Source: Candidatus Omnitrophota bacterium (GTDB lineage Bacteria; Omnitrophota; Gorgyraeia; Gygaellales; Profunditerraquicolaceae). From it: a stretch of 64,000 nt of DNA. Shown here piece by piece: positions 4,137-31,354 of this stretch. The position numbers and the translations under genes are program-made. The stretch's first letter is position 1. Every line of letters starts with the position of its first letter. Below the pieces are notes generated by a model. It ran no database searches. It was not told the DNA's origin and worked only from the letters and a program-made list of their open reading frames with translations. The DNA lies in assembly GCA_028715785.1 (NCBI GenBank), contig JAQURC010000002.1, positions 76,322 to 140,321 of the forward strand, read 5' to 3'.

Positions 4137-4148
4137 GAGGTGAAAACA

Positions 4149-9066: not shown

Positions 9067-9470
9067 AAATAACCAGGAAAGTAATTAAAGAGATAGTGGA
9101 GCAGGCTAAAAAGGAGGCGCCGCTTGAGGCCTGCGGGTATCTTGGCGCCAAAGACGGTATTATTACAAAAATATACGCGTTGACCAATATCGATAAAAGT
9201 AATGAGCATTTTTCTTTTGAGCCAAAAGAACAATTCCTGGCAGTTAAAGATGCCCGCGCTCAAGGACTGGAGATTTGCGCTGTCTATCATAGCCATCCAG
9301 CCAGCCCGGCCCGGCCGTCAGAGGAGGATATAAAACTGGCATATGATCCGGATAAGAGTTACTTTATTATTTCTCTGGCCGGATCTAACGAAGAGTTACG
9401 GGCATTTTCAATAAAGAGCGGTGTTGTTACTGAAATTAATCTGGAGGTCATTGATGATCAAAGGGTATGA
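9063..9470 (+). CDS. JAMM/MPN+ metalloprotease (Mec+/HcyD-like; would cleave after Gly-Gly)
   Basis: EACGYL ... HSHPASPARPSEED JAMM motif; 135 aa; adjacent to the E1 and to the ThiS-MetY fusion. Confidence 0.75.
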   Translation: MKITRKVIKEIVEQAKKEAPLEACGYLGAKDGIITKIYALTNIDKSNEHFSFEPKEQFLAVKDARAQGLEICAVYHSHPASPARPSEEDIKLAYDPDKSYFIISLAGSNEELRAFSIKSGVVTEINLEVIDDQRV

Positions 9471-15440: not shown

Positions 15441-15902
15441 ATGAAGATATCAAAAAAAGGTGAATACGCATTAAAAGCGCTGATCGAGTTAGCAATTAAT
15501 TACGATAAGGGAGTAGATGTGACATTAATTAATGAGATTGCTAACCAGGAAAATATTCCCCCGAGATATTTAGAGCAGATTCTTCTTAGGCTTAAAAATG
15601 CCGGGATATTGGTAAGTAAGCGCGGGGTAGGCGGTGGATATTCTTTAAGCAAGGCCCCGGAAAATATAAGCCTGGGAGAAATAATAAGAATAGTAGAAGG
15701 CCCTTTGGCGCCTTTGGATTGCGTAAGCGTAAGCCGGCATGTAGATTGTTCCGAGCAATCGCGTTGCGGCATATATAGTGTTATGCATGAGGTCAGAGAC
15801 GCGATTGCAAATATCCTGGATAATATTTCATTAAAAGATGTGGCAAAAAGAACCCTTGATTTAAGAGAGAAGAACCAGCTTGTTTTGAGTTACGCTATAT
15901 AA
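15441..15902 (+). CDS. Rrf2-family transcriptional regulator (IscR/CymR-like)
   Basis: 153 aa; wHTH EIANQENIPPRYLEQILLRLKNAGILVSKRGVGGGYSL; three C-terminal Cys (C-x5-C-x5-C) consistent with an Fe-S sensing Rrf2 protein. Confidence 0.75.
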   Translation: MKISKKGEYALKALIELAINYDKGVDVTLINEIANQENIPPRYLEQILLRLKNAGILVSKRGVGGGYSLSKAPENISLGEIIRIVEGPLAPLDCVSVSRHVDCSEQSRCGIYSVMHEVRDAIANILDNISLKDVAKRTLDLREKNQLVLSYAI

Positions 15903-16586: not shown

Positions 16587-17966
16587 ATGATAAAGATATT
16601 TAGGATTTTAGCCATAGGCGTGTTTCTTTTTGTAAACTTTAATTCTCTGCTATTTGCCGCTGAACTTGAAGATTTAAAAAGCGAAGTTCAGGTATTGCGG
16701 GAGGAAGTTAAAAGCTTAAGGGAGGAATTAAGGGCTGTTAAGAAAGAGCAGCCTGTGGCAGCGGCGCAAAAAGAAACAGTTACGCAGGTGGATTTACAAG
16801 GTGTAAGAACCGAGGTAGAAACCTTGCGTGACCAATGGCAAAGGACGCTGGATAAAAAGACCGCTCAGACGACAAGATCCCTTACTTTTGGCGGGACTGT
16901 TGCGACCAGATATACGCAAACCAGAGATGAAACTACAAAAAGCGGCTTTAGCCTTAGTTCGCTTATCCTCAGCTTCAAGGGAAACTTAAGAAGGGATTAT
17001 GAATTAGGAAGGAATCTTGATTATGCATTTAGCCTATCCAGCGATACAACTGATAATTACAGGGTAAAGCCGCTCGATGCCTACCTTACTTATTCACCTT
17101 TGCCTTCTCTCGACCTTGAAAAACCACGTCTTACTCTGGCTCTTGGCCAACAGAAGAAACCTTTTGGCCGCGATCCTCAGACCACTGAAGAATATAAGCC
17201 TACGCTTAGGAGCGCGCAATTTGATACAAATTTAGGCCTGGGCACGCGCGATATCGGTTTTATTGCGAAGGGAGATTTATTTCCCATTGTTGATTATGGG
17301 TTTAATTACCGGGCGCCTTTGTTTGAGTATGCTGTTGGGGTAATTAACGGTGCTGGCCCAAACACGACCGATAATAATAATCAAAAAGATTTTGTGGGAA
17401 GGATTGGCATTAATGCTCCAGTAGAATACAATTCCATCTTTAGGGGGCTTTCTGCCGGGATTTCAGGGTGGACTGGGCAAAAGAGCCTAAGCTTAGGCTC
17501 AGGTGCTACCGCAATTACTCGCCGGGGCCATAAAAATAGATGGGGTTATGATCTGGCTTATAACCGTACGCCTATCGGAGTAACAGCGGAATATGCTCAA
17601 GGCACGGATGCGACTCTCTCGGGCAGCGTAGCAAATCCTGTTTTGGGCGCTGTTAAGAGTGATGGTTATGCCGCTACCGTATTCTATAATTTCGGGCAGC
17701 AGTTTGTAAAAGGATTTAAGGGGCAGAATAGATATGATGATTGGTATCCTTTAACTTATCAGCCGTTCGTGAGATTTGATAGCTGGGATCCCAATACGCA
17801 TCTTGGTAATGACCGGATTAATGTGACAACTTTAGGTTTTAACTGGTTTTTTGCCGAGACCACGAAACTGCAATTCAACTATAACATTGTCAAAAAACAA
17901 GATAAATCCGGTTCCAATGGAAGCGGCTATAACGAATTCCTAGCCCAATTCCAGTATGGATTTTAA
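16587..17966 (+). CDS. outer-membrane porin (OprO/OprP-like) with N-terminal coiled coil
   Basis: Signal peptide MIKIFRILAIGVFLFVNFNSLLFAA, a coiled coil (ELEDLKSEVQVLREEVKSLREELRAVKKE), a beta-rich body and a C-terminal ...QFQYGF. Directly upstream of the Ssu-type importer. Confidence 0.5.
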   Translation: MIKIFRILAIGVFLFVNFNSLLFAAELEDLKSEVQVLREEVKSLREELRAVKKEQPVAAAQKETVTQVDLQGVRTEVETLRDQWQRTLDKKTAQTTRSLTFGGTVATRYTQTRDETTKSGFSLSSLILSFKGNLRRDYELGRNLDYAFSLSSDTTDNYRVKPLDAYLTYSPLPSLDLEKPRLTLALGQQKKPFGRDPQTTEEYKPTLRSAQFDTNLGLGTRDIGFIAKGDLFPIVDYGFNYRAPLFEYAVGVINGAGPNTTDNNNQKDFVGRIGINAPVEYNSIFRGLSAGISGWTGQKSLSLGSGATAITRRGHKNRWGYDLAYNRTPIGVTAEYAQGTDATLSGSVANPVLGAVKSDGYAATVFYNFGQQFVKGFKGQNRYDDWYPLTYQPFVRFDSWDPNTHLGNDRINVTTLGFNWFFAETTKLQFNYNIVKKQDKSGSNGSGYNEFLAQFQYGF

Positions 17967-17981
17967 AGAGAGGAGGACAAA

Positions 17982-19058
17982 GTGAAAAAGTTATTAAATA
18001 GCTTGTTAATCGCGGGTTTGTTAATAGGGGTGACGGGAGTGAATTCCATTTTTGCCGAAGGAAAGAAACCAAAAGTCATTCGTCTGGGTTCTGCTTATGG
18101 CGGGGGTTACGGCAAACCCTTTTCATCGGGAACTATCGGTATTGTTCACGCGAAAGGATTGTTAGAAGAAGAGTTTAAAAAAGACGGCGTCAAAATCGAC
18201 TGGTATTTTTTTAAAGGCGCCGGCCCGGCTACAAATGAGGCTATTGCCAATAATACCCTTGATTTTGGCTATATCGGAGATTTGCCGTCAATCGTTGGAA
18301 GGGCAGGCGGATTAAAGACTAAACTTCTTGCTGCCGGCTCGGTGCGGGCGGAAATTTACATATTGATTCCGGCGGATTCCCCGGTTACCTCAATAAAGGA
18401 ATTAAAAGGTAAAAAGGTGGGAATATTTAAGGGGATAAATTCTCATCTGGGAATTACCAGGATTTTAGAAGCAAATGGTTTAACGGAAAAGGATTTGAAA
18501 GTATATAACTTAGGGACAGCAGATATTGAGGCGGCTCTGGCTTCTAAAGATATCGATGCCGGCGGAGGCGGCTTGCGTTTGCGTGACTTAGGTCTGGTGA
18601 AAGTACTTCTTTCGACAAATCCCGTCCTGCCAGGGATAGATGCTTCATTAAAAGTGCCGATTCAATGGAAACCTACAGGCGGGCTATTTGTTACGGAGAA
18701 ATTTGCTAATGAATATCCGGATATAGTTAAACGGGTGGTAAGGGTTTATGTGGAGGCCGCAAAGTGGGGCTCAGAGGAGAAAAACAGGGAAGAAGTGTTT
18801 CAACTCTGGTCAAAAGTGGGAACACCTCTTAGTCAAATTAAAGAAACTAATGCTGGTAAAACGCTGAAACAGTTAAATACCCCGCTTATTGACGGATTTT
18901 ATGTTACTCATTATAAAGACGCCTTGCTTTATAGTAAAGAACATAAATTTATCAGGAATACTTTTGATGTGGATAGTTGGATAGATAGAAGCTATTTGAA
19001 TGCGGCGTTAAAAGAATTGGGATTAGAGAATTTTTGGCAACCATACGAAGCAGAATAA
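17982..19058 (+). CDS. ABC transporter substrate-binding protein, NitT/TauT (SsuA/TauA-like) family
   Basis: Signal peptide; SsuA-like blocks (KVIRLGSAYGGGYGKPF, DFGYIGDLPSIVGRAGG). Confidence 0.7.
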   Translation: MKKLLNSLLIAGLLIGVTGVNSIFAEGKKPKVIRLGSAYGGGYGKPFSSGTIGIVHAKGLLEEEFKKDGVKIDWYFFKGAGPATNEAIANNTLDFGYIGDLPSIVGRAGGLKTKLLAAGSVRAEIYILIPADSPVTSIKELKGKKVGIFKGINSHLGITRILEANGLTEKDLKVYNLGTADIEAALASKDIDAGGGGLRLRDLGLVKVLLSTNPVLPGIDASLKVPIQWKPTGGLFVTEKFANEYPDIVKRVVRVYVEAAKWGSEEKNREEVFQLWSKVGTPLSQIKETNAGKTLKQLNTPLIDGFYVTHYKDALLYSKEHKFIRNTFDVDSWIDRSYLNAALKELGLENFWQPYEAE

Positions 19059-19072
19059 AAGGAGAAGAGAAA

Positions 19073-20377
19073 ATGAGCAAGAATAACGGTGAATTGAATT
19101 TAAAGCAAGTTGCGGAGAAACACACGGATTTCCCTCAACTAATCATTCGTAAAATTGATACCGCTCTTCGTGGGGTAAATTTTACTGAAAGGGCCGTGAA
19201 AAAAGCTTGGGATTTAAATGCTTTGTATGACGCGGCTCCTGAGCTTGAAACAAAGGGAGCAGGGTTAGTTTTTGGCGGGGCTTTATTCAGAGATGGGACT
19301 TTAGTGCAGGGGGTTGAATCCATATCTTCGCTGCGGGGTAGAATTTTAAGAAAAGATAAAGCCGCGCCCTATACCTTAGATGCGATTGACGGAAAATTAT
19401 GGCTCTTAGACGATAAACAGCCTGTGGAGGAGATTGATTTTGTGCCTATTCCCGAATATTACGGTAAAAAAACCAGCCGGGGAACTCCCATGATTAAGGT
19501 GGTAAGGACAGGCCCGCCGGACTGCTTGAATGTCAATGTATATGGTTACTGCCTTTTTTGGAAAGAAAAACTTCCCTGCAAATATTGCTGCTTTCAGGAG
19601 AGTTTATTGCGGGAGGGCCTGCACACGCAGGAAAGTTTAGACGATATTTATGAAACAGTAAGCGAGGCGTTAAAAGAAAAGGGCAGGTGGACAGGAATGC
19701 GTTTGATTGCCGGCTCTGATTTTAGGGGGAAAACTCCTTACGAGAATGATTCTAACGAGTATATCAGGGTATTAAAAACATTGCAGAGATCGTTTGGCAC
19801 GAAAAATATTTACGCGCGGTTAGTTGCCAGCGCCGTTCCCAAAGAACATCTTGAGAGGGTAAAAGAAGCGGGCGCAGTTGCTTATGAGCCGCATATCGAA
19901 GTATGGGATAAAAAAGTATTCGGGAAAATCTGCCCCGGAAAGGCAAAGTTTTTTGGATGGCAGTATTGGGTGGATAATATTATTGACGCGGTAAAGGTTT
20001 TCGGCAGAGGCAATGTTTGCTCCCAGCTTGTAGCTGGAGCCGAATTGGCCCAGCCATATGGCTTTAAAAGCGTTGAGAAAGCCTTAAAATCAAATCTTGA
20101 GGGCGTTGAATTTCTTGCCCAGCACGGAGCGAATGTTTCTTTTTGCGTCCTCTGGGTAGGTCAGGGTTCCGTATTTTTCGCGGAAAAGCAAACAGCGGCG
20201 CCATTAGAATATTATGTGAGATTAGCCAAGGGAATCCGGGATATCCGTAAAAAATATAAGCTGGCCGTGGATTTCAACGACTACAGGCGCTGCGCGATTC
20301 ATCCGGATACTGATTTAGCCAGGCTTGACTATAACGAAGTATCGTATGAGCCTGTTGGGGCAGGGGAGGGAAGATAA
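19073..20377 (+). CDS. uncharacterized Cys-rich protein, paralog 1 (Cx8Cx2C motif; possible Fe-S / radical-SAM-like)
   Basis: 434 aa; CLFWKEKLPCKYCC motif and further Cys conserved with the paralog at 20909 (about 45% identity; shared DYYGKKTSRG, ICPGK, GFK[ST][IV][DE][EK]ALKSN). Confidence 0.5.
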   Translation: MSKNNGELNLKQVAEKHTDFPQLIIRKIDTALRGVNFTERAVKKAWDLNALYDAAPELETKGAGLVFGGALFRDGTLVQGVESISSLRGRILRKDKAAPYTLDAIDGKLWLLDDKQPVEEIDFVPIPEYYGKKTSRGTPMIKVVRTGPPDCLNVNVYGYCLFWKEKLPCKYCCFQESLLREGLHTQESLDDIYETVSEALKEKGRWTGMRLIAGSDFRGKTPYENDSNEYIRVLKTLQRSFGTKNIYARLVASAVPKEHLERVKEAGAVAYEPHIEVWDKKVFGKICPGKAKFFGWQYWVDNIIDAVKVFGRGNVCSQLVAGAELAQPYGFKSVEKALKSNLEGVEFLAQHGANVSFCVLWVGQGSVFFAEKQTAAPLEYYVRLAKGIRDIRKKYKLAVDFNDYRRCAIHPDTDLARLDYNEVSYEPVGAGEGR

Positions 20378-20412
20378 CTTAATAAGTAAAAAAATTTTAA
20401 GGAGGAATAAAA

Positions 20413-20886
20413 ATGTCTAAATTGTCAAAAGAAGTGGTGGATTTAATTAAAGATTGTGCATCAATCAAAATTGTTACTACGACCGATGAAAACGGCAATC
20501 CGCATGCCGCTTTTAAAGGGTGCTTAACCGTGCTTGAGGACGGGAATTTGGCTTTTGCCGAGACCCTTGAGGGCTCACAAAACAATATTAACCTGGTGCG
20601 CAGCCTTTGGTTTGATAAAAATGTGCAGCTAACCGTCCGGGGCAAGGACGGGAAAACCTTTCAGATTAAAGGTAAGCCGTATAAGTATAGTTATACAGGG
20701 CCGCTATATAAGAAGTTTTATCTTGCGGCAAGAAAAAAACGGGGGCAGGATTCTGAGATTTCCGGCGTATGGGTTATTGTGCCGGAAGAAGTCAGAGATG
20801 AAACCTACGAGGCAAGGAAAAAAATAGAGGATGAACTGCACCCGTTCTTTAGGCATTTTGACCGGGAGAGTGTTTTGGTTAAATAA
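20413..20886 (+). CDS. pyridoxamine-5'-phosphate-oxidase-like FMN-binding split-barrel protein
   Basis: 157 aa; N-terminal KEVVDLIKDCASIKIVTTTDENGNPH typical of the PNPOx-like family. Confidence 0.6.
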   Translation: MSKLSKEVVDLIKDCASIKIVTTTDENGNPHAAFKGCLTVLEDGNLAFAETLEGSQNNINLVRSLWFDKNVQLTVRGKDGKTFQIKGKPYKYSYTGPLYKKFYLAARKKRGQDSEISGVWVIVPEEVRDETYEARKKIEDELHPFFRHFDRESVLVK

Positions 20887-20908
20887 AATTATGAAAGGGG
20901 AAAATAGA

Positions 20909-22159
20909 ATGGGTAAGAATAACGGTAAGTTAGGCGTGGAAGAGTTGGTAAGCAAGTACCCGGATATATCACGGTTTATTATCCTTAAACTTGATGTGCA
21001 AAAAAGGGGGATTGAGTTAACGGAAAACGCCCAGGAAGCGGTTCAGGATTCTAAGTATCGTTTCAGGCCCAGGAGCGCGGCTTATAGCGGAGACGACGGT
21101 TCTAAGAAAGCTAATCCGGGGCCGTTATTACTGCGTGACGGCACAACTGTGCTTAGCGGGGCGGGGCTTAAATACGAAGATCCTTATAGAGTGCATCATG
21201 TTGATGGCAAATTTTTTCTTTTTGATAAAGGTAAAAAAATTGAGGAGGTGGATTTTACTCCCAGGCCGGATTATTACGGCAAAAAAACAAGCCGGGGAGT
21301 CCCTATGGAATCAATTGCTTCGGCCCGGCCGCAGCGGTTAGATATTTCTCCTTACCGTTATTGCCATTTTTGGGATACGGGTGATCAGTGCAAATATTGC
21401 GCGTTTTTCACGGATATGGAAGAACAAAGGCAATTAGCGGATAAGAATTTTCCGAAGGTTATTGATCCGGAAGATATTTATGAAACAGTAAGGGAAGCTT
21501 TAAAAGAGCCGGGGAGGATTTCACAGATAAACCTGACTGCCGGCGCGGATTACAGCGGCGATCCGCCTTTTGAAAATGAAGTGAACCGGTATATAAAGGT
21601 TTTGCAGGCTATCGGCAGGAATTTTAAGTCAAGAAGGTTTCCCAGCCAGCTAATTGCGCCTGCGTATACTAAAAGGCAGATTAAAAGAATTTATGACGAA
21701 ACTGGCCTTTCTTCATACTGCCCGGATATTGAGGTATGGGATGAAAAGTTGTTTAAGTGGATCTGCCCGGGAAAAGAAAAATGGCTGGGAAGGGACCATT
21801 GGATAAAGTCAGCTCTTGACGCGGTTGAGATTTTTGGAAAAGGCAATGTTTATACAAACTTTGTCGCGGGGGCAGAGACCGCTAAACCTTATGGGTTTAA
21901 GACCATTGACGAAGCTTTGAAGTCCAATTTTGAAGCCTGCGAATTTTTTTCTAAACACGGTGTAGTGTTTTTAAGCTTAGTTTGGCGGCCGTGGAAAAGT
22001 TCCAAATTTGCCGGCCAGAAACAGCCGCCCCTTGAATATTATGTGCGGCTGGTAAAAGGACTACACGAAATAAGGAAAGCACATGGCCTGACTTCTGACA
22101 ATGATGATTACAAACATTGCGGTAACCATGGGGACAGCGATTTAGAAAGAATAGACTAA
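20909..22159 (+). CDS. uncharacterized Cys-rich protein, paralog 2 (Cx8Cx2C)
   Basis: 416 aa; CHFWDTGDQCKYC; homologous throughout to the 19073 gene. Confidence 0.5.
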   Translation: MGKNNGKLGVEELVSKYPDISRFIILKLDVQKRGIELTENAQEAVQDSKYRFRPRSAAYSGDDGSKKANPGPLLLRDGTTVLSGAGLKYEDPYRVHHVDGKFFLFDKGKKIEEVDFTPRPDYYGKKTSRGVPMESIASARPQRLDISPYRYCHFWDTGDQCKYCAFFTDMEEQRQLADKNFPKVIDPEDIYETVREALKEPGRISQINLTAGADYSGDPPFENEVNRYIKVLQAIGRNFKSRRFPSQLIAPAYTKRQIKRIYDETGLSSYCPDIEVWDEKLFKWICPGKEKWLGRDHWIKSALDAVEIFGKGNVYTNFVAGAETAKPYGFKTIDEALKSNFEACEFFSKHGVVFLSLVWRPWKSSKFAGQKQPPLEYYVRLVKGLHEIRKAHGLTSDNDDYKHCGNHGDSDLERID

Positions 22160-22176
22160 AATAAGGAGAAAACAAA

Positions 22177-22668
22177 ATGTCAAAGTTACCTAAAGAATTA
22201 GTTGATTTATTAAAAGACCGCGAAAGCGTAAAAGTGTTGGCAACATTAAATCAGGACGGTTCTCCGCATACAGTAATTAAAGGTTCATTAACTACTTTGG
22301 ACGGAGAAGCGATAGCTTTAAGTGAAGGGCTGGACACTTATCAGAGCAATAAGAATTTAGTAAGAAGTATCTGGTTCGATAAATCCGTATCAATTAATAT
22401 TACTAAGGGGCCGGTCAGCTATCAAATAAAAGGCAAACCTTATAAATGTTTGATTACCGGAGAGATTTTTAAACAGTTTCTTCTTAAAGCCAGAGAAAAA
22501 AAAGGGCCTGACGCGGATATTGCCGCGGTTTGGATAATTACGCCTGAGGAAGTCAGGAATGAATCTCCGGCAATTCGAAGAAAAGAAGAGGAAGAAAAAA
22601 GGCCGTATTTTAACCGGCATCTAGACAGGGAAAGTTTAATAAATAGAGAGCTTTCTTCAGCAAGATAA
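22177..22668 (+). CDS. PNPOx-like FMN-binding split-barrel protein (paralog of the 20413 gene)
   Basis: 163 aa; KELVDLLKDRESVKVLATLNQDGSPH; same domain order as 20413. Confidence 0.6.
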   Translation: MSKLPKELVDLLKDRESVKVLATLNQDGSPHTVIKGSLTTLDGEAIALSEGLDTYQSNKNLVRSIWFDKSVSINITKGPVSYQIKGKPYKCLITGEIFKQFLLKAREKKGPDADIAAVWIITPEEVRNESPAIRRKEEEEKRPYFNRHLDRESLINRELSSAR

Positions 22669-22716: not shown

Positions 22717-23244
22717 ATGGATATTTATGAAATTATTTCAGCCAGGCACAGTATAAGAAAGTATAAATCTATTCCTATAGAAGAGGAAAAGTTAAACCGG
22801 GTTTTAGAAGCAGCCAGGATTGCTCCGTCCGCGGGAAATCGGCAGCCTTGGCACTTTATCGTGATAAAGGATGAAGAGGTGAAAAAACAGCTTAAAGAAG
22901 CGCAAGTTTATATCTCTCCTAAAGGAGGAGATTGGTTTTACTCCGCGCCGGTGATAATTTGCGCCTGTGGCGAATCTTCTAAAAGCTGGATAAGAAAAGA
23001 CGGAAAGGATTATCGCGATGTGGATCTGGCTATTGCTTTTGACCATCTTATTCTGGCCGCGACAGCAGAGGGCCTTGGGACCTGTTGGATAGGCGCCTTT
23101 GATCCAATACCGGCTAAAAAAGTTCTTGGGATTCCTGAAGGCATTGAGCCTATTGTTTTTACTCCTTTGGGATATTCCGATGATTCTCCACAGGACAGAG
23201 GGCGCAAATCCAAGAGTGAAATTATTCACCAGAATAGATGGTAA
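22717..23244 (+). CDS. nitroreductase-family FMN oxidoreductase
   Basis: RHSIRKYK ... APSAGNRQPWHFIVI signature. Confidence 0.7.
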   Translation: MDIYEIISARHSIRKYKSIPIEEEKLNRVLEAARIAPSAGNRQPWHFIVIKDEEVKKQLKEAQVYISPKGGDWFYSAPVIICACGESSKSWIRKDGKDYRDVDLAIAFDHLILAATAEGLGTCWIGAFDPIPAKKVLGIPEGIEPIVFTPLGYSDDSPQDRGRKSKSEIIHQNRW

Positions 23245-23271: not shown

Positions 23272-23910
23272 ATGGTAAAGATAGTCGGTTTATCCGGGAG
23301 CCCGCGTAAAGACGGTAATACTGAGATTTTGGTAAAAGAGGCTTTAAAAGCGGCAAAAAGCCGCGGCGCGGAAACAGAATTTGTCAGTTTGGCTGGAAAA
23401 GAAATACAACCTTGCCAGGCTTGTTATACCTGCCGTTTAGAAGAGTCTAAAGGCGAATGCGCGATTGAGGATGATTTAGCGGAAATATTCGAAAAATTTA
23501 AAGAAGCAGACGGGATAATTATCGGCAGCCCCGTATATTTTCTTACAGTTACCGCGCAATTAAAAGCGTTATTTGACCGGAGCCTTGTTTTGAGATACGG
23601 AAAGGGCAAAGTTAAAGGAAAACCCGGGATCAAGAGAACGCCTGACTTTTTGCTCAGCAATAAAGCCGGCGGCGCTATTTCTGTTGCCGGCAGCACTGGG
23701 CAGCAGCTTACTATTTTAGAAATATTAAAATGGATGGTCTTCCAAGATATGGTTGTAGTCGGTAACGAGTTTGATTTAGGCACAAACGCACGCGCGGGAC
23801 TAAAAGGTGGTGCGCGTAAAGATAAAGCAGCTTTGCAGCAGGCGCGGCATACCGGGTTAAGAGTGGCTGAGATTGCTAAAAGATTAAACCCGGGGAAAAT
23901 AACGGGATGA
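23272..23910 (+). CDS. NADPH-dependent FMN reductase / iron-sulfur flavoprotein (Isf-like)
   Basis: [13 protein letters not shown] flavodoxin-like N-terminus plus compact CQACYTC...C motif. Confidence 0.65.
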   Translation: MVKIVGLSGSPRKDGNTEILVKEALKAAKSRGAETEFVSLAGKEIQPCQACYTCRLEESKGECAIEDDLAEIFEKFKEADGIIIGSPVYFLTVTAQLKALFDRSLVLRYGKGKVKGKPGIKRTPDFLLSNKAGGAISVAGSTGQQLTILEILKWMVFQDMVVVGNEFDLGTNARAGLKGGARKDKAALQQARHTGLRVAEIAKRLNPGKITG

Positions 23911-25073
23911 AAAATCTCTTTGCCAATAATAAATTTATTCTAAACTTGATGCTTTTAGGGGTTTTCGGCGGTATTAATATGGGGATTTTACATATTGTTA
24001 TCAATCTCTATTGCATAAATTTAGGGGCAACATCATCGCAGTTAGGAATAATAAGAAGCGCACAAGGCTTAAGCGTATTATTGATGGTTTTACCGGTTGG
24101 ATTTTTTATTGACCATTTTGGGGCAAGAAAATTATTTATGCTTGGCGGGTGGGTGAGCGCGTTAGTAATTTTGTTCTTTCCGTTAGTAAAAAGTGTGCAG
24201 ATTATCCCATTTTTTACGGCAATTATGGGGCTCGTGGGCTCAATGCGTTTTACTTCAATGAGTTCGGTTTTCTTGACTCATTTAAAAGGGATGGGAAACG
24301 GAAAAGCCGGATGGTTCCGGGGGTCGCAATCCATAGGCCTGATGTTTCTTGGGCCCTTATTAGCGGGGTATTTGGTAAAAAGCCTGAATTTCACCATGAG
24401 TTTTGTTTTGTTAAGCGTTTTTACGGTGGCTATTGTAATTTTTGCTTTTTTTGTTTTTGCCAAAAAATCAGATTACGAAAAAAAATTTTTTGATCCAGTG
24501 GTTTTTTCTTTTAAAGATATAGTTAAAAATTTAAAGCTGCTATTAAGGAATAGAACCTTGGTTAGGGCATCTGCCGCCGAAGGAGTAAGTATAATGTGTT
24601 TTTCTTGTTATACTACTTTTATTATAGCCATGGCGTTACGCGTTTTTGGCCTGTCACAGCAGGCAGCCGTTAGTTTAGTGGCTGCGCAAGGATTGGCCTT
24701 TATATCAACGGTTTTTTTAGGCGGTTTTTTATTGGATAAATACCCGGTAAAAAAACTTTACTTAGTCAGTTTATTAATATTGGCCCTAGCTTCCCTTATT
24801 CTTGGTTTAACCAAAGAAGTAAAATTTTTATGGCTAGGCGCTTTCATTTTCGGAATAGGATTGGGAGTGGTTAATGTGATTAATCTAGCATGCCTGGCGA
24901 ATATCGAGGGTAAAAAGGGTAAAATAACCGGTTTTTTTTCTTTGAGTACCAGCATGGGTATAGTGTTGGGCTCTTTTTTGGGCGGGATTATCGGAGATGT
25001 TTTTGGGATACAGGCTATTTTTTTGGCATTGGCGCCGGTGTGTTTAATTGCCGGATTAATATTGCATAAGTAA
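23907..25073 (+). CDS. MFS transporter
   Basis: 388 aa with about 12 predicted TM helices in a 6+6 arrangement. Confidence 0.55.
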   Translation: MKNLFANNKFILNLMLLGVFGGINMGILHIVINLYCINLGATSSQLGIIRSAQGLSVLLMVLPVGFFIDHFGARKLFMLGGWVSALVILFFPLVKSVQIIPFFTAIMGLVGSMRFTSMSSVFLTHLKGMGNGKAGWFRGSQSIGLMFLGPLLAGYLVKSLNFTMSFVLLSVFTVAIVIFAFFVFAKKSDYEKKFFDPVVFSFKDIVKNLKLLLRNRTLVRASAAEGVSIMCFSCYTTFIIAMALRVFGLSQQAAVSLVAAQGLAFISTVFLGGFLLDKYPVKKLYLVSLLILALASLILGLTKEVKFLWLGAFIFGIGLGVVNVINLACLANIEGKKGKITGFFSLSTSMGIVLGSFLGGIIGDVFGIQAIFLALAPVCLIAGLILHK

Positions 25074-25128: not shown

Positions 25129-25902
25129 ATGATTTTAAATAAGATCAAAGATAAATTATGGGGGTTCGTTCTTCCTCTGTTAGTACTTATAACTTGGGAG
25201 ATAGTAACCCGTTTAGAATTGTTTCCTATTCAGTTGTTAGTTCCGCCTAAACAGGTAGTTTTTACTTTTATAGATTTACTTAAAAAAGGAGATTTATTAA
25301 CCCATTTAAGGATAAGTTTTATGAGGGTGTTAGCCGGATTCGCGATAGGCACATCAATCGGATTTATTTTTGGGACTGCGATGGGTTTATCAAGAAGGAT
25401 AGAAAAATATTTCGGGCCGTTATTTCACGCGGTCAGGCAGGTTCCTTTGCTAGGCTGGATGCCTTTGTTGATGTTATGGCTGGGAATTGGAGAAGCCTTT
25501 AAGGTAGTGCTTATTTCCATAGGCGCTTTTTATCCGGTAGTCTTGAATACTTTTGAAGGGGTAAGAAGCGTGCCGAAGGAGTATGCGGAAGTAGCGCAGG
25601 TATTTGAATATAGTAAATTTAAACTCTTGCGAAAAGTTATTATTCCGGCAGCTTTGCCATCAATTCTTACCGGCATAAGGATTGCTTTGAGTATGTCCTG
25701 GTTATTATTGGTGGGCGCTGAGCTTATGGCTGCTAGCGAGGGAGTAGGTTTTTTGATGACGCAAGGCAGGCGGTTTTTTCAAACAGACGTGGTAATGGTG
25801 GGGGTGCTTATTATTGGCGTTATCGGCTTGGTTATAAATAATACGGTAGCAAGGATAGAAAAATATTTTCTGCGCTGGAGCAGGACATTTGAGGCCGGAT
25901 AA
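25129..25902 (+). CDS. ABC transporter permease (SsuC/TauC-like)
   Basis: Six TM helices; EAA-like loop AASEGVGFLMTQGRRFFQTD. Confidence 0.75.
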   Translation: MILNKIKDKLWGFVLPLLVLITWEIVTRLELFPIQLLVPPKQVVFTFIDLLKKGDLLTHLRISFMRVLAGFAIGTSIGFIFGTAMGLSRRIEKYFGPLFHAVRQVPLLGWMPLLMLWLGIGEAFKVVLISIGAFYPVVLNTFEGVRSVPKEYAEVAQVFEYSKFKLLRKVIIPAALPSILTGIRIALSMSWLLLVGAELMAASEGVGFLMTQGRRFFQTDVVMVGVLIIGVIGLVINNTVARIEKYFLRWSRTFEAG

Positions 25903-25903
25903 T

Positions 25904-26683
25904 ATGACTAAAATTACTTTAGGCCGGTTATGGGAAAAATTCCAAAGCAGTTTTGTTTTTTGGGTGTTATTAGCAATTTGGTGGGCGGCAGCCGGATGGA
26001 AATTAGTTTCTCCCGCGATACTTCCGGCGCCAAGTCAAGTTGTCAGTACCTTTATTGATTTAGTTAAGAACGGTATTTTGATTTTTAATCTCAAGGCAAG
26101 CCTCTTGAGAGTGATTAGCGGATTCCTTATAGGGGCATCTATAGGGTTTGTTTTAGGCGTTTTAATGGGGTTATCAAAGATTATAGAAAAGCTGGTTGCG
26201 CCTTCATTCCACGCGATCAGGCAGGTGCCATTATTGGGCTGGATACCTTTAATAATATTGTGGTGCGGTATCGGAGAAATTTCCAAAATAGTTTTTATTG
26301 CTCTTGGGGCTTTTTATCCGGTGGTTCTGAATACCTTTCAGGGAATCAGGAGCGTAAAGAAAGAGTATATAGAGTTATCCCAAGTATTTGAATATAGTAA
26401 AATTAAGCTTTTACGAAAAGTGGTCTTTCCGGCGGCACTGCCATCTATTCTTACCGGAATAAGATTTAGCCTGAGTGTCTCGTGGCTATTGGTAGTGGGC
26501 GCGGAAATGTTTACCGCCGCAGCCGGGGGCATTGGCAGTATGATGACGGAAGGCAGGGAGCAATGGCGGATGGATATTGTTTTTGTGGGAATAATTGTTA
26601 TAGGAGTAATAGGGTTTATTATGAATAACTCTATAGGGTTATTAGAAAGGCGGTTTTTACGCTGGAGAAAAACTTTTTGTTAA
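25904..26683 (+). CDS. ABC transporter permease (second SsuC/TauC-like paralog)
   Basis: Close paralog of the 25129 gene (FEYSK[FI]KLLRKV[IV]PAALPSILTGIR). Confidence 0.75.
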   Translation: MTKITLGRLWEKFQSSFVFWVLLAIWWAAAGWKLVSPAILPAPSQVVSTFIDLVKNGILIFNLKASLLRVISGFLIGASIGFVLGVLMGLSKIIEKLVAPSFHAIRQVPLLGWIPLIILWCGIGEISKIVFIALGAFYPVVLNTFQGIRSVKKEYIELSQVFEYSKIKLLRKVVFPAALPSILTGIRFSLSVSWLLVVGAEMFTAAAGGIGSMMTEGREQWRMDIVFVGIIVIGVIGFIMNNSIGLLERRFLRWRKTFC

Positions 26684-26767: not shown

Positions 26768-27259
26768 ATGTCTTTCGACAAAGAAGAAATCAAGTCTTAT
26801 ATCAATAACACAAAATTGTTTACCCTGGCTACAATAGATAGCGGGAATGGAGAAATTTATCCCGCTTTAAGGGTGATTGGCGCGTTTGCCACGAATGGTT
26901 TTACCATTTATTTTTCAACCGGCAAAGACAGCGCTAAGTCAAAGCAGATTGAGAATAACCCGAATGTTACGGCTTATTTTCAGCAGGAAGGCCAGGCGCT
27001 GCCGAATTTCCGCAACGTAACTGTAATTGGTAAAGCCAGGCTTTTGCAGTGTGAAGGCGAGTTTAATAAAGCATTAGAGCTTATCGGTAACAGAAACCCC
27101 CGATTTAAAGAACGGATTAAAAATAACGGCAGGGACAAAGTCGCCATTTTTAAGATTAAACCGGAAACAATTAAAAGCTTGGATTATGGCCGTGGCCACG
27201 GGGCTCAGGCTGTTGAAAAAATTAAGATTGATTCCGCCTGTTGCGCCAGCACAAAATAG
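26768..27259 (+). CDS. PNPOx-like FMN-binding protein (general-stress-protein-26-like)
   Basis: 163 aa; LFTLATIDSGNGEIYPALRV and NPNVTAYF blocks. Confidence 0.55.
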   Translation: MSFDKEEIKSYINNTKLFTLATIDSGNGEIYPALRVIGAFATNGFTIYFSTGKDSAKSKQIENNPNVTAYFQQEGQALPNFRNVTVIGKARLLQCEGEFNKALELIGNRNPRFKERIKNNGRDKVAIFKIKPETIKSLDYGRGHGAQAVEKIKIDSACCASTK

Positions 27260-27310
27260 CCGAGGGTAAATTGATAGTACTTGGTAGGGTTTGAAATGGA
27301 GGCGCGCAAA

Positions 27311-28087
27311 ATGGAAAAATTAGGAACTTTAAGAGTAGAAAATCTAAATAAAAAATTTCAAGTTGAAAACAAGGAAATCTCAGTTCTTGAGAATATCAAC
27401 TTAACCGTTTCTCCGGGTGAATTTGTCAGTATTGTCGGCACAAGCGGCTGCGGCAAGAGCACCCTCTTGAGGTTAATTGTCGGATTGGGAGATGAATATC
27501 AAGGCAATATTCTTTTAGACGGCAAAAGGATTAACGGCCCCAGCGTCAATAGAGGCATAGTATTCCAGGATCCCAGGCTTCTACCGTGGCTGACAGTGGA
27601 AGAAAACGTGGGTTTTGGTTTGGACGGCAAGAAAAGCATTGATAGGAGGAAAATTATCCAGGAACACATCAATTTAGTAGGCCTGAAGGGTTTTGAGAAG
27701 GTATATCCTTATAAGTTATCCGGCGGCATGGCTCAACGGGCAGCTATCGCCCGAGCTTTAGTAAACAGGCCGGAGATTTTATTGTTGGATGAACCTTTAG
27801 GGGCATTAGATGCTTTAACGCGTATGTATATGCAGGAGGAATTAGAAAAGATCTGGAAAAGAGAAGGAATTGCCAATATCATGGTTACCCACGATATTGA
27901 AGAGGCGATTTATCTTGGCGACAAGGTTATAATTATATCCTGCCGTCCGGGAAAAATAAAAAGAACTATCCCTGTGCCGTTATCACGGCCGCGCGACCGG
28001 GATAGCCTTGATTTCATAAGGATAAAAGAAGAGGTGTTAAAAGAGTTTCATTTGCAGGCAGAGCAGTATTTTAGTTACGCCATATAA
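27311..28087 (+). CDS. ABC transporter ATP-binding protein (SsuB/TauB-like)
   Basis: Walker [10 protein letters not shown], signature LSGGMAQR, Walker [12 protein letters not shown]. Confidence 0.8.
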
Positions 28088-28112: not shown

Positions 28113-29042
28113 ATGGGCAGAATTTATGAAGATATCACCAAGACAATCGGCAATACCCCGCTTGTGCGCTTAAACAGAGTTGCCAAAGGAATTGGGGCAA
28201 CGGTGTTGGCAAAGTTAGAATTCTTTAATCCGCTTTCAAGCGTCAAAGATAGGATAGGTGTGTCAATGATTGAAACAGCTGAAAAAGACGGGCTGCTGAA
28301 GAAAGATACGATTATAGTCGAACCGACAAGCGGAAACACGGGAATCGCCTTGGCGTTTGTTGCTGCGGCAAAAGGGTATAAATTGATTCTGACTATGCCG
28401 GAGACTATGAGTATAGAAAGAAGGCAGTTACTTTCACTTTTCGGCGCGGAGCTTGTGCTTACTCCGGGAACAGAAGGCATGACCGGAGCAGTTAAAAAGG
28501 CGGAGGAGATTACGAAGAATACGCCGAATTCTTTTATGCCCCAGCAATTTAAGAATCCGGCAAATCCGGAAATCCATAGAAAGACTACCGCTGAAGAAAT
28601 TTGGAAAGACACGGATGGTAAGGTAGATATCTTGATTTCAGGTGTCGGCACAGGCGGGACCATTACCGGCGTAGCAGAGGTGATAAAAAAGCGAAAGCCG
28701 GAATTTAAGGCTATTGCCGTAGAGCCCGTTGATTCGCCTGTGCTTTCAGGAGGAATGGCTGGAGCACATAAGATTCAGGGGATAGGTGCGGGGTTTATAC
28801 CGGAAATTTTAAATACCGGGATAATCGATGAGATAGTAAAAGTAAGCAATGATGATGCGGGTGAATTTGCCCGACGGTTAGCTAAAGAAGAAGGGATATT
28901 AGCAGGGATATCAAGCGGCGCTGCTACCTGGGCAGCTTTGGAAATAGCAAAGAGGCCAGAGAATAAAGGTAAGCTTATTGTTGTTATCTTGCCCGATACA
29001 GGTGAGAGGTATTTGAGCACCTGGATTTTCCAGCAAACATAA
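28113..29042 (+). CDS. cysK: cysteine synthase (O-acetylserine sulfhydrylase) CysK
   Basis: PLP-Lys motif [24 protein letters not shown]. Confidence 0.85.
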
Positions 29043-29079: not shown

Positions 29080-30237
29080 ATGCAGGGTAATTATTTAATC
29101 ACTTCTGAATCCGTTGGTAACGGCCATCCGGATAAGGTTTGCGATCAGATCTCAGATGCTGTTTTGGACGCTGTTTTAAAAGACGACCCTAAGGGCCGTG
29201 TGGCATGCGAAACTTTTATCAGCGCGGGTTTGGTGATTGTGGGCGGCGAAATCACGACCTCAGCTTTTATTGATGTTCACCGTCTTGTGCGCGGGGTTTT
29301 GAATGAAATCGGCTATACGAACCCTGTGTACGGATTTGATGCCCATACGGCCGCGATTTTGAATGCCATCAATCCTCAATCTCCGGATATCGCTCAGGGA
29401 GTGGATGTAGGCGGAGCGGGTGATCAGGGGATCATGTACGGTTATGCGACTGATGAAACTAAAGAACTTATGCCGCTGCCGATCACTCTTGCGCACAAGC
29501 TTGTGAAACGAATTGAGGAGGTTAGGACCAAGAAAATCCTTGATTATCTCGGCCCTGACTGTAAAAGCCAGGTAACTGTGGAATATGTTAAGGGGTGGCC
29601 GAAGCGTATTGATTCTGTTGTTATTGCCGCACAGCATACGGAGAAAATCTTGGATAAAACCGGCAAAAGGATTACGGATAAAGCACGTAAAGAGATTATT
29701 GGAGTTGTTGTGCGGCCTATTGTTGGAAAACTTGTCGATAAGAATACGAAATACTATATTAACCAGACTGGTAAATTTGTAGTCGGCGGACCCCAGTCTG
29801 ATACGGGGGTTACGGGCCGTAAGATTATCGTTGATACTTACGGCGGGATTGTCCCGCATGGCGGTGGGGCTTTTTCCGGAAAAGATCCGACCAAGGTGGA
29901 TCGTTCAGCAGCCTATGTGGCGCGTTATATTGCTAAAAATATTGTCGCGGCAGGAATTGCTAAGAAAGTGCTTATTCAGCTAAGTTATGTTATCGGTAAG
30001 GCTGAACCTTTGAGCATTTTTGTGGATACCTTCGGTACCGGAAAGATCTCGGAACAAAAGATCGTTGAACTTATTCGCAAGAATTTTGACTTGACGCCCC
30101 GGGGGATTATTGAAAGCTTGGATCTTCGTAAGCCGATCTTCCGCCGGACCGCGGTATACGGCCATTTTGGTAACTCGGAGTTTAGGTGGGAAAAGACGGA
30201 TAAGGCAGCGAAGCTTAAGAAAGATGCAGGGGTATAG
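29080..30237 (+). CDS. metK: S-adenosylmethionine synthetase
   Basis: [31 protein letters not shown]. Confidence 0.9.
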
Positions 30238-30253
30238 TGAGAAAATATAACTT

Positions 30254-30726
30254 ATGGAAAAAGATAAAAAAGTAGCTAATTCAGTGTTAGATTTAATTGG
30301 CTCTACGCCTATGGTAAAACTAAATAAAGTAGTAGATAAAAAAAGTGCAACCATCTATGCAAAATTAGAATCTTTTAATCCTGGTGGCAGCGTGAAAGAC
30401 AGGATTTGTCTGAGTATGATTGAAGATGCTGAGAAGAAGAGTATATTAAAACCCGGCTCAACTATTGTTGAATCCACAAGCGGCAACACTGGTATCGGTT
30501 TAGCCATCGTTTGCGCTGTGAAATTATTCAGGTTGATAATAATGATGCTCACGCTACTTCAAGGCGTTTAGCCAGGGAGGAGGGTTTATTTGTGGGTATA
30601 TCAGCAGGAGCGGCAACTTGGGCAGCTTTACAGGTAACTCGTCAATTAGGCCGAGGGAAATTAGTGGTTACAATTTTACCTGATACCGGAGAAAGGTATT
30701 TCAGTATGGAACAATATTTTACTTAA
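30254..30726 (+). pseudogene. cysK paralog with internal deletion/frameshift (N- and C-terminal fragments only)
   Basis: The 30254 ORF encodes the CysK N-terminal 90 aa ([13 protein letters not shown]...[12 protein letters not shown]). The 30511 ORF, in another frame, encodes the CysK C-terminal 65 aa ([12 protein letters not shown]...[11 protein letters not shown]). About 150 central residues are missing. Confidence 0.7.
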
Positions 30727-30769
30727 ATGTTTGTTAAGATATGAAGGAAAAGGTGGGCCGGATAATAAT

Positions 30770-31354
30770 ATGAAAGTAGCAGCGATTAACGGAAGCCCCA
30801 GGAAAGATGGGAATACATATATTCTTATAAACCGTGTTCTTGATGAGCTTAAAAAATCCGGGATAGACACAGAGATAATTCAGCTCGGCGGAGAGAAAAT
30901 TAGAGGATGCCTGGCTTGTAATATCTGTTGGAAGAATAAAAATAAACGATGCGCTATCGAAGACGATATTATAAACACCTGTATTGAAAAGATGTTAAAA
31001 GCGGATGGCATTATTATAGGTTCCCCAACTTATTTCTCAAATGTTACTACAGAAATAAAAGCATTGATAGACCGGGCGGGATCTGTTGGATGCGCCAACG
31101 GTAATATGTTTAAACGCAAGATTGGCGCGGCGGTAGTCGCGGTTAGAAGAGAAGGCGCGATTCACGTTTTTAATTCAATTAATCATTTTTTTTTGATAGA
31201 AGAAATGATTGTCCCTGGATCCTGTTATTGGAATATAGGTATTGGATTCGATAAGGGCGAAGTAAATAACGATACAGAAGGTTTGCAAACAATGAAAATT
31301 CTTGGCCAAAATATGGCATGGTTGTTAAAGAATATAAATAAACAGCGGGGATAA
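30770..31354 (+). CDS. NADPH-dependent FMN reductase / iron-sulfur flavoprotein (Isf-like), second copy
   Basis: [13 protein letters not shown] plus [15 protein letters not shown]. Confidence 0.65.

Follow-up and report, generated by a model that had tools for sequence, protein, structure and literature searches.

The 64,000-nucleotide stretch of contig JAQURC010000002.1 from a Candidatus Omnitrophota bacterium, hereafter the window, contains a conserved two-gene cassette in two copies (19073-20886 and 20909-22668), which by sequence comparison diverged long ago. Each copy pairs a large radical S-adenosylmethionine (SAM) protein with a small split-barrel protein of a flavin-binding type, and both are located in an operon that also encodes SsuA-, SsuC- and SsuB-like importer components. 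The genomic context suggests that these cassettes could provide for an oxygen-independent, SAM-consuming release of assimilable sulfur, probably of sulfite from sulfonates, a reading to which we give about even chances.

An earlier note on this DNA, which was made from the letters without database searches, had described two tandem two-gene units, and all four open reading frames (ORFs) were found at these positions on the forward strand, each with a Shine-Dalgarno sequence of the AAGGAG type 6-10 nucleotides 5′ of its start. Module 1 consists of the large subunit big1 (19073..20377; 434 amino acids) and the small subunit small1 (20413..20886; 157 amino acids), module 2 of big2 (20909..22159; 416 amino acids) and small2 (22177..22668; 163 amino acids), sizes that agree with those noted before. 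The large proteins are paralogs, as had been claimed, although their identity is 42% over 429 columns (E 7e-113) and not about 45%; small1 and small2 are 50% identical (E 4e-57).

A database search for the family yielded 775 matches at E<=1e-5, and 211 family clusters (50% identity, E<=1e-30) were obtained among 1.84 billion representatives. In collections with one genome per species the family occupies at least 471 places in many phyla, almost all of them anaerobes. All locus statistics given here were taken over the best 80 loci of the family, 25 belonging to a thiamine-regulated clade (T) and 55 lying outside of it; the small gene directly follows the large gene in 76 of the 80. A neighbour-joining tree of the large subunits separates the S clade, comprising big2, its Geobacteraceae ortholog (76% identity), Chlorobi, some Bacillota and the second Chloroflexota copy, from its sister, the T clade of gut Clostridia and Coriobacteriia. 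The M clade contains proteins from Lachnospiraceae, Clostridium, Desulfitobacterium, Synergistaceae and Syntrophomonas, and the N clade comprises big1, the first Chloroflexota copy, Nitrospirae and Elusimicrobia. More distant D paralogs form the core of the NCBIfam family NF045502 (480 bits) and retain both the Cx8Cx2C motif and the ICPGK motif. Loci with several modules recur in Chloroflexota (N plus S type, as in the window), Methanoperedens and Lachnospiraceae. Cultured carriers of the cassette include Desulfitobacterium sp. Sab5 (L050), Clostridium sp. LP20 (L045), Roseburia yibonii (L071), Pseudobutyrivibrio sp. OR37 (L062) and Rhodoblastus sphagnicola DSM 16996 (L060).

The closest relatives of big1 are copy 1 of the Chloroflexota locus L040 (59%) and proteins from Nitrospirae and Elusimicrobia, small1 shows 68-72% identity to N-clade small partners, and each small protein of the window is closest to partners from the clade of its own large protein. 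Since each module matches a different clade, for the large and the small subunit alike, the two modules are old paralogs. A recent tandem duplication was ruled out, because the modules fall into different deep clades and the same pairing is present in one Chloroflexota genome. In addition, the two subunits of a pair co-evolve, judging by sequence: over 67 adjacent pairs, the matrix of identities among the large proteins and that among the small ones correlate with r 0.64, the maximum of 200 label permutations being 0.17.

The large subunits, as judged by sequence and structural model, are genuine radical-SAM enzymes whose [4Fe-4S] ligands are spaced Cx8Cx2C. The cysteine triad that had been recognised in both proteins (CLFWKEKLPCKYC and CHFWDTGDQCKYC) is invariant in 24 of 24 aligned sequences, that is, the two window proteins and 22 diverse homologs. 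Likewise, all 97 sequences of the locus set retain it, and no homolog lacking the motif was encountered among them; four clades show the x8 spacing and one the x9 spacing (Cx9Cx2C). The additional motifs pointed out in the earlier note are conserved as well. C286 and K289 of ICPGK are universal, and G124, T127, S128 and G130 of the GKKTSRG block are invariant in the 24-sequence alignment; as a speculation, this basic loop could bind an anionic group. The C-terminal C-x2-H-x-D (C404, H407, D409) is invariant in the big2 clade (20/20), and H407 and D409 are so in the alignment of both large proteins with the 22 homologs. In the T clade, C404 and H407 are present in 25 of 25 sequences and D409 in 22; the metK-linked clade retains C404 and H407 alone, with Asn mostly in place of D409.

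Both large proteins exceed the cutoff of 125 bits for NF045502 (variant_rSAM; big1 163.8 bits, big2 226.1 bits), and they remain below the cutoff of 29.5 for Pfam PF04055 (22.1 and 27.6 bits, respectively). The nearest named family by profile is MSMEG_0568 (TIGR04043, E 1e-15 to 1e-18), with 64.6 and 54.9 bits at a cutoff of 303.7. NF045502 has no function assigned, and no confident match to a characterised family with an unrelated role was obtained. A search of the family profile against the sequences of solved structures gave just two spurious matches to retinol-binding proteins. An AlphaFold model (predicted local distance difference test, pLDDT, 86.6; predicted template modelling score, pTM, 0.89) consists of a beta-rich N-terminal domain of ~135 residues, to which the GKKTSRG loop belongs, followed by a radical-SAM barrel, and the closest folds found with it include LipA, BioB, HydG and NifB. 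In structure, the large proteins thus fall into the BioB/ThiH/LipA class of radical-SAM proteins, and their cluster motif is a variant one; the earlier note had likened the CKYC context to BioB/ThiH-like sites. RadicalSAM.org holds CX8CX2C and CX9CX2C subclusters inside Megacluster 4-6, and motif variants are recognised in the superfamily (PMC9477430). The measured x8 and x9 spacings match these subclusters, which suggests that the family is catalogued in Megacluster 4-6.

The small subunit is predicted from its model to be a split-barrel protein of a flavin-binding type. The label PNPOx-like, given to it in the earlier note, holds for the split beta-barrel fold; membership in PF01243 falls short of the cutoff of 28.1 bits, the scores being 20.0 bits for small1 (2 Cys, 0 Met) and 26.0 bits for small2 (1 Cys, 0 Met).

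The genes from the porin (16587) through metK (30237) are separated by gaps of less than 90 bp and form an operon in the order porin, SsuA-like binding protein, cassette 1, cassette 2, nitroreductase, Isf-like reductase, major facilitator superfamily (MFS) transporter, two SsuC-like permeases, PNPOx-family protein, SsuB-like ATPase, cysK and metK. The neighbours listed before, namely porin, SsuA-like protein, nitroreductase, two Isf-like FMN_red proteins, MFS transporter, two SsuC-like permeases, ATPase, cysK and metY, were all recovered. The operon forms part of a sulfur-assimilation island, ~40 kb in length. Its upstream part encodes a sulfate-type ATP-binding cassette (ABC) system with an ATPase-TusA fusion, a ThiS-MetY fusion, ThiF, a JAB protease, a sulfite reductase-TusA fusion and siroheme/heme genes. 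The downstream part comprises the second Isf-like reductase, paired ABC exporters, metY, a second cysK, metX and metW, followed by thiG and thiH. Hence, cysK and metY lie downstream of the cassettes as had been stated, whereas the sulfite reductase, which had been placed there too, lies upstream at 9421-11817. In line with the earlier observation that an O2-dependent desulfonating enzyme is missing, no Pfam match to SsuD, a luciferase-like monooxygenase or TauD was found among the 66 scanned ORFs of the window. Moreover, the scanned window ORFs include no glycyl-radical enzyme and no NifH/D/K-like gene, the only ORF of more than 700 amino acids being the sulfite reductase.

The association of the cassette with Ssu-type importers and sulfur genes, which the earlier note had seen in this one locus, holds across phyla. 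Outside the T clade, 39 of the 55 loci contain an SsuA-like binding protein, 38 SsuC-like permeases and 42 at least one sulfur marker; metK is present in 17, metY in 10, sulfite reductase in 7 (the window being an additional case) and NifHDK-like genes in 10, the latter in Chlorobi, Geobacteraceae and Desulfitobacterium. The binding proteins adjacent to the cassette in other genomes reach 173-225 bits on the SsuA_fam model, the cutoff of which is 163.5. ThiF and JAB genes of the thiocarboxylate type of homocysteine synthesis are found near the cassette in 6 loci and likewise in the window.

The closest synteny is that of Geobacteraceae, where a D-type radical-SAM gene, BcrAD, two HGD-D genes, porin, SsuA, large and small subunit, nitroreductase and FMN reductase are followed by permeases, ATPase, an aldo-keto reductase, NifH-like, two NifDK-like and PNPOx genes. 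The order in Chlorobi is porin, SsuA, large, small, permeases, ATPase, D-type radical SAM, short-chain dehydrogenase/reductase, NifH/D/K-like genes, PNPOx and ABC exporter, and in Desulfitobacterium metY, metK, large, small, SsuA, permease, ATPase, cysK, a NifB-like radical-SAM gene and a NifD-like gene. Locus L057 is arranged metY-large-small-SsuA-permease-ATPase-metK. A member fused to a GNAT domain is flanked by a YeeE-type sulfur transporter, by TauD and by an SrpI-like encapsulin that is accompanied by an aminotransferase-V protein (desulfurase). In the Chloroflexota locus two PNP_UDP_1 nucleosidase/phosphorylase genes follow the cassette, and Candidatus Methanoperedens (L086:6770-20471) has two units of an NMT1-type binding protein with large and small subunit. 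The same locus contains NMT1 binding proteins paired with HGD-D-like genes, and it looks like a battery of modules composed of importer and radical enzyme. SAM riboswitches upstream of metK-linked operons were sought in 7 loci and none was found, the scan returning only an unrelated T-box and a lysine riboswitch.

Proteins made in sulfur starvation tend to be poor in cysteine and methionine. The porin (458 residues) and the binding protein (357 residues) of the window contain 0 Cys and, after the initiator, 0 Met, and the nitroreductase contains 0 Met; housekeeping proteins of the window have 3.5-5% Cys+Met. In the locus set, the small subunits average 1.0% Cys+Met outside the T clade (n=59) versus 4.2% inside (n=14; Mann-Whitney p 2.7e-8), and the methionine content of the large subunits is 1.17% versus 1.68% (p 0.002). 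The averages for the S clade are 0.37% in binding proteins and 0.24% in porins, and T-clade YkoF proteins have 6.1%. In the N clade, the small partners are sulfur-poor, with 0.9% Cys+Met, and the large subunits are not depleted of methionine (1.58%). A composition of this kind gives the operons of the S and M clades, but not those of the T clade, the appearance of genes for sulfur starvation. The metK genes adjacent to the cassette follow the same trend: 12 of 17 copies (about 392-413 residues) are without Cys or Met after the initiator, the other ORFs of these loci averaging 4.0%. These sulfur-free MetK copies look, from their sequence, like isozymes for sulfur starvation, and a literature search for a MetK free of Cys and Met found no description; they represent an unusually clean example of elemental sparing. 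Loci with such a copy include L049, L054-L058, L061, L062, L068, L071 and L078, for instance L057:14512-15690. With 7-9 Cys and an Fe-S cluster retained in the large subunits, the module pair itself is not likely to be just a sulfur-poor replacement of a housekeeping enzyme.

The following sequence of events would account for sulfur release by the cassettes. Organosulfur anions, most likely aliphatic sulfonates, would be imported, and the radical-SAM subunit would spend SAM stoichiometrically to generate a 5′-deoxyadenosyl radical that abstracts a hydrogen adjacent to the C-S bond. In one route, the resulting alpha-carbon radical would be oxidised and hydrated to a 1-hydroxysulfonate that yields an aldehyde and sulfite, with the net outcome of SsuD but without oxygen. 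In a second route, a beta-carbon radical would fragment to an alkene and a sulfite radical, which would then be reduced. The small flavoprotein, supplied by the nitroreductase and the Isf reductases, may move electrons to or from the radical-SAM enzyme. Sulfite would be passed to the upstream sulfite reductase and on to CysK and MetY, MetK would replenish the SAM that is consumed, and the two cassettes may handle different classes of substrate. Stoichiometric use of SAM would explain both the adjacency of metK and the PNP_UDP_1 genes in Chloroflexota, and sulfite as the product fits the neighbouring sulfite reductases.

The earlier note had envisaged an Fe-S- and flavin-dependent system that releases sulfur from organosulfur compounds without O2. 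This reading is borne out in part. The importers found across phyla, the co-located sulfur-acquisition systems and the sulfur sparing strengthen it; relatives in thiamine and cytochrome contexts temper it, and several findings weigh against it. The T clade, the sister of the big2 clade (50-56% identity), belongs to a thiamine regulon and not to a sulfur regulon. A thiamine pyrophosphate (TPP) riboswitch was present in 8 of the 8 gut-type loci first scanned with Rfam, and an nhmmer profile built from these 8 aptamers located it in 23 of the 80 loci, always upstream and on the same strand. The T-clade operon comprises ykoF, the energy-coupling factor (ECF)-type transporter genes ykoEDC, large and small subunit, and in L043:5598-6689 and L047:1911-2990 the small subunit is fused to YkoF, a thiamine/hydroxymethylpyrimidine-binding family. 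The ligand of YkoE is thiamine. YkoE is described as the S component of an ECF vitamin transporter in the accessible part of PMC5037267. Most N-clade relatives of big1 adjoin ResB/CcsA and B12-radical-SAM genes and have no importer, and a member from Schekmanbacteria lies beside flavin reductase, HD protein and UbiD-family genes. The best structural match of the small subunit is HupZ, a heme-binding protein. An auxiliary Fe-S cluster built from extra conserved cysteines is unlikely, since only C286 is universal and C271 and C344 are limited to two clades (C344 sitting in a predicted barrel helix); with only one extra cysteine universal, there is no clear auxiliary cluster for the carriage of electrons. 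The binding protein of the window scores 154 bits and is just under the SsuA_fam cutoff of 163.5, literature searches on the motif, on the family and on links to thiamine or sulfonates turned up no functional work on any member, biochemical or genetic, and the substrate, the product and the site of hydrogen abstraction of the cassette enzymes are purely inferred.

As shown by the thiamine-regulated and ResB/CcsA-associated relatives, the family is functionally diverse and not uniformly a sulfonate family. Correspondingly, the link to sulfur is less secure for module 1, a member of the N clade, than for module 2. It derives from the position of module 1 directly after a sulfur-free binding protein in the same operon and is supported by the combination with an S-type module seen in Chloroflexota. 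In Nitrospirae and Elusimicrobia the order is ResB, large, large, small, two CcsA-like and two B12-binding radical-SAM genes, with no importer or sulfur genes. Loci of this type are L085:6613-17535 and also L064, L067, L073 and L079.

An alternative that we hold to be unlikely is that the cassettes scavenge sulfur from thioethers or methylthio compounds, or release sulfide or methanethiol, which MetY would convert to homocysteine or methionine and MetK further to SAM. The adjacency of metK in 17 loci and of metY in 10, together with the order from metY to metK in L057, is consistent with this possibility, as is the presence of a sulfite reductase within 10 kb in only 9 loci. The co-location with nitrogenase-like genes points in the same direction, since Mar frees methanethiol from methylthio-alkanes for MetY (PMC13474568). 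However, the binding proteins adjacent to the cassette pass the cutoff of the SsuA family for aliphatic sulfonates and resemble solved SsuA structures, the window and three further lineages have sulfite reductase and siroheme genes next to the operon, and TauD, the neighbour of the GNAT-fused member, is a sulfonate enzyme.

It is still less probable that the cassettes serve the maturation of a cofactor or the modification of a tetrapyrrole or metallocluster, as in siroheme enzymes, cytochromes or nitrogenase-like proteins, and not catabolism. The match to heme-binding HupZ would fit such a role, and so would the cofactor builders LipA, BioB, HydG and NifB among the closest folds, the core NF045502 paralogs directly beside NifHDK-like genes in Chlorobi and the N-clade members between ResB and CcsA genes in two phyla. 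The siroheme and heme genes just upstream in the window might be read likewise, but they are accounted for by the siroheme need of the sulfite reductase. Moreover, the window holds two cassettes yet no nitrogenase-like genes, and the position of the S- and M-clade cassettes between binding-protein and permease genes is typical for an enzyme that acts on an imported substrate.

Salvage or synthesis of a thiamine precursor (pyrimidine or thiazole), presumably the role of the riboswitch-controlled relatives, with an NMT1-type, ThiY-like importer that brings in a thiamine-related compound, appears very improbable for the window: the T clade is sister to the big2 clade, its riboswitch stands in three loci directly before the large gene, YkoF fusions occur, the NMT1/THI5 family, by its Pfam name, includes thiamine-precursor proteins, and thiG and thiH are encoded 17 kb downstream, but no TPP riboswitch was detected in the window or in the 21 S-, M- and N-clade loci scanned with Rfam, the binding protein matches SsuA and TauA and not ThiY, sulfur sparing marks the S and M clades and not the T clade, and 0 of 25 T-clade loci have an SsuA-like gene. 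For the window, the riboswitch result covers all Rfam models at the gathering threshold, none of which matched, and the nhmmer profile of the 8 aptamers. The loci with a TPP riboswitch are L018-L020, L022-L025, L027-L031, L033-L036, L038, L042-L044, L046, L047 and L059; in L043 and L047 it directly precedes the radical-SAM gene. Cultured strains with the T-clade operon include Clostridium leptum DSM 753 and Pseudoflavonifractor capillosus ATCC 29799.

Returning to the release of sulfur from sulfonates, the Ssu-like type of sulfur-scavenging operon is known, and its catalytic module in the window is not. With SsuEADCB and TauABCD of the E. coli type the operon shares an SsuA-like binding protein, SsuC-like permeases, the SsuB-like ATPase, flavin reductases, a setting of Cys/Met genes and sulfur-poor proteins. 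Unlike these systems, the window has neither SsuD nor TauD among its scanned ORFs, and the catalytic slot is taken by two radical-SAM/split-barrel pairs; furthermore, in contrast to Ssu, the reductases are Isf-like and nitroreductase-like and not SsuE, and porin, cysK and metK belong to the same operon.

Known oxygen-free routes to sulfonate sulfur are glycyl-radical lyases, Xsc and the nitrogenase-like systems Isr and Mar, and the subject is only partly understood. Glycyl-radical sulfonate lyases (IslAB, HpsGH), as far as the accessible parts of the sources describe them, likewise cleave C-S bonds anaerobically to sulfite by means of a SAM-derived radical, whereas the window contains no glycyl-radical enzyme, and in its radical-SAM protein an extra N-terminal domain is joined to a full TIM barrel, unlike in a small activase. 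Isr and Mar are nitrogenase-like anaerobic C-S reductases for sulfur acquisition that occur with SsuCAB-type importers and are induced by sulfur limitation (PMC11423573, PMC13474568). IsrBHDK and MarBHDK share with the cassette systems the O2-independent acquisition of sulfur and the Ssu-type importers, and NifHDK-like genes share loci with the cassette elsewhere. In contrast, the window has no NifH/D/K-like genes, and the radical-SAM protein would itself be the catalyst, with a flavoprotein as its partner and not an ATP-driven Fe protein. The large subunit does not correspond to IsrB or MarB, as IsrB is BciD-like, MarB is NifB-like and neither belongs to the Cx8Cx2C family.

Compared with BioB, LipA, ThiH, HydG and PylB, the large subunits show 11-14% identity, Cx8Cx2C in place of CxxxCxxC, the N-terminal domain of ~135 amino acids, no BATS domain and no obvious cysteines for an auxiliary cluster. 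MSMEG_0568 of the Nit1C cluster (TIGR04043) is the nearest named profile, and some members of the cassette family are fused to GNAT. A separate GNAT gene adjoins MSMEG_0568 in the Nit1C cluster, which would echo this fusion; the scores are nevertheless far under the cutoff, and the Nit1C neighbourhood, as given in the accessible part of the source, is one of nitrilase and cyanide assimilation. Queuine lyase salvage, which combines a radical-SAM enzyme with an ECF transporter and a riboswitch, involves a different radical-SAM subfamily, has no split-barrel partner and is not relevant to the sulfur context of the window.

We consider it possible, albeit somewhat doubtful, that the cassette constitutes a new class of desulfonating enzyme, composed of a radical-SAM catalyst and a dedicated flavoprotein, and with it the long-missing O2-free route to sulfonate sulfur of strict anaerobes. 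Carriers of such a route would be Chlorobi, Geobacteraceae, Lachnospiraceae of rumen and gut, and Methanoperedens. Sulfite converts thiamine to pyrimidine methanesulfonate, and, as a speculation, the T clade would then act on a thiamine-derived compound, possibly pyrimidine methanesulfonate. If it is the catalytic module, the cassette would stand for a new type of radical-SAM reaction and provide a new marker by which the cycling of organosulfur compounds could be followed in sediments, rumen and gut. With clades in sulfur, thiamine and cytochrome contexts, the family moreover amounts to a natural experiment in enzyme recruitment.

The remaining genes of the operon and its surroundings are likewise encoded on the forward strand. 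An Rrf2-family protein (15441..15902; PF02082 133.6 bits; TIGR00738 123.5 bits, above cutoff), whose gene immediately precedes the operon, is a candidate regulator of it; it is not assignable as CymR, the model of which it matches with 103 bits at a cutoff of 195. The outer-membrane anion porin is of the Porin_O_P type (16587..17966; PF07396 E 2.1e-10) and has orthologs in the same position in 10 loci. The periplasmic SsuA-like binding protein (17982..19058; TIGR01728 SsuA_fam) carries a signal peptide, and its best solved relatives are the SsuA structures 3uif (E 5.5e-44), 2x26 and 3e4r, with no match to ThiY. The importer was also compared with Haft's SAO organometallic system, SaoP and SaoA being the top NCBIfam rows, and rejected as such because the scores are well under cutoff and the defining selenoproteins are absent. 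Downstream of the cassettes, the nitroreductase-family flavoprotein (22717..23244; PF00881 113 bits), which probably serves electron transfer, takes the same place after small2 in Geobacteraceae and Chloroflexota loci. It is followed by the Isf-like flavin mononucleotide (FMN) reductase with the motif CQACYTC...C (23272..23910; PF03358 110 bits), which has an ortholog in Geobacteraceae and does not reach the cutoff of 164 for SsuE (TIGR03567, 34.7 bits), and by the MFS transporter (23907..25073; PF07690 128 bits), which is conserved after small2 in Chlorobi loci.

The two SsuC/TauC-like ABC permeases (25129-25902 and 25889-26683) score 185 and 179 bits on NF008470, with an equivalog cutoff of 347; they are of the NitT/TauT type, and their orthologs match PF00528. 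The SsuB/TauB-like ATPase (27281..28087) gives 215-250 bits with NitT/TauT-type ATPase models, all under the equivalog cutoffs. Between them lies the third PNPOx-family protein (26768..27259; PF01243 53 bits), which has no sequence similarity to small1 or small2 and the homologs of which follow nitrogenase-like genes in Geobacteraceae and Chlorobi loci. Cysteine synthase CysK (28113..29042; TIGR01139 483.8 bits, cutoff 351) precedes the SAM synthetase MetK (29080..30237), the last gene of the packed operon, whose product is sulfur-poor with 3 Cys and 2 Met. Right after metK, a 105-amino-acid ORF (30254-30571) matches only the first 85 positions of PALP and is probably a fragment of a cysK-like gene. 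The second Isf-like FMN reductase (30731..31354; motif CLACNIC...C) is a paralog of the first (98-100 bits). Scans of the operon for promoters and terminators gave the same counts as shuffled sequence.

In the upstream island, the ABC ATPase-TusA fusion is located at 4140-5162 and ThiS-MetY at 6800-8260, and the ORFs at 8257-9066 and 9063-9470 belong to the same set as the sulfite reductase-TusA fusion. ThiS-MetY, a sulfur-carrier domain fused to O-acetylhomoserine sulfhydrylase, is one of three unusual fusions in the island, and we take the set of ThiS-MetY, ThiF and JAB to resemble the protein-thiocarboxylate route to homocysteine of Wolinella. The set of sulfite reductase, ThiF and JAB is also found near the cassette in L010-L012, L015, L053 and L075.

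D paralogs (L081:2549-7048, L083:14224-20020 and L041:15440-19272) occur in Chlorobi beside NifH/D/K-like genes, with three tandem copies in L041. A Geobacteraceae metagenome-assembled genome has a D paralog beside a BcrAD activator and two HGD-D dehydratase-like genes, and no split-barrel partner accompanies it there. A pair of half-transporter ABC exporters (MsbA/CydDC-like) is shared by the window (31561-35162) and Chloroflexota (L084:4007-7695), and a cut copy is present in Chlorobi (L083:20487-21260).

The window genes outside operon and island are housekeeping genes. All window genes with a family match lie on the forward strand, and the skew of guanine over cytosine (GC) is positive in 32 of 32 two-kb bins (1-64000). 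A dip of the GC content to 38% at 56-58 kb, near a RhuM/Fic-domain gene (55258-56088) and an ORF without family (57042-58154), may mark a small insertion.

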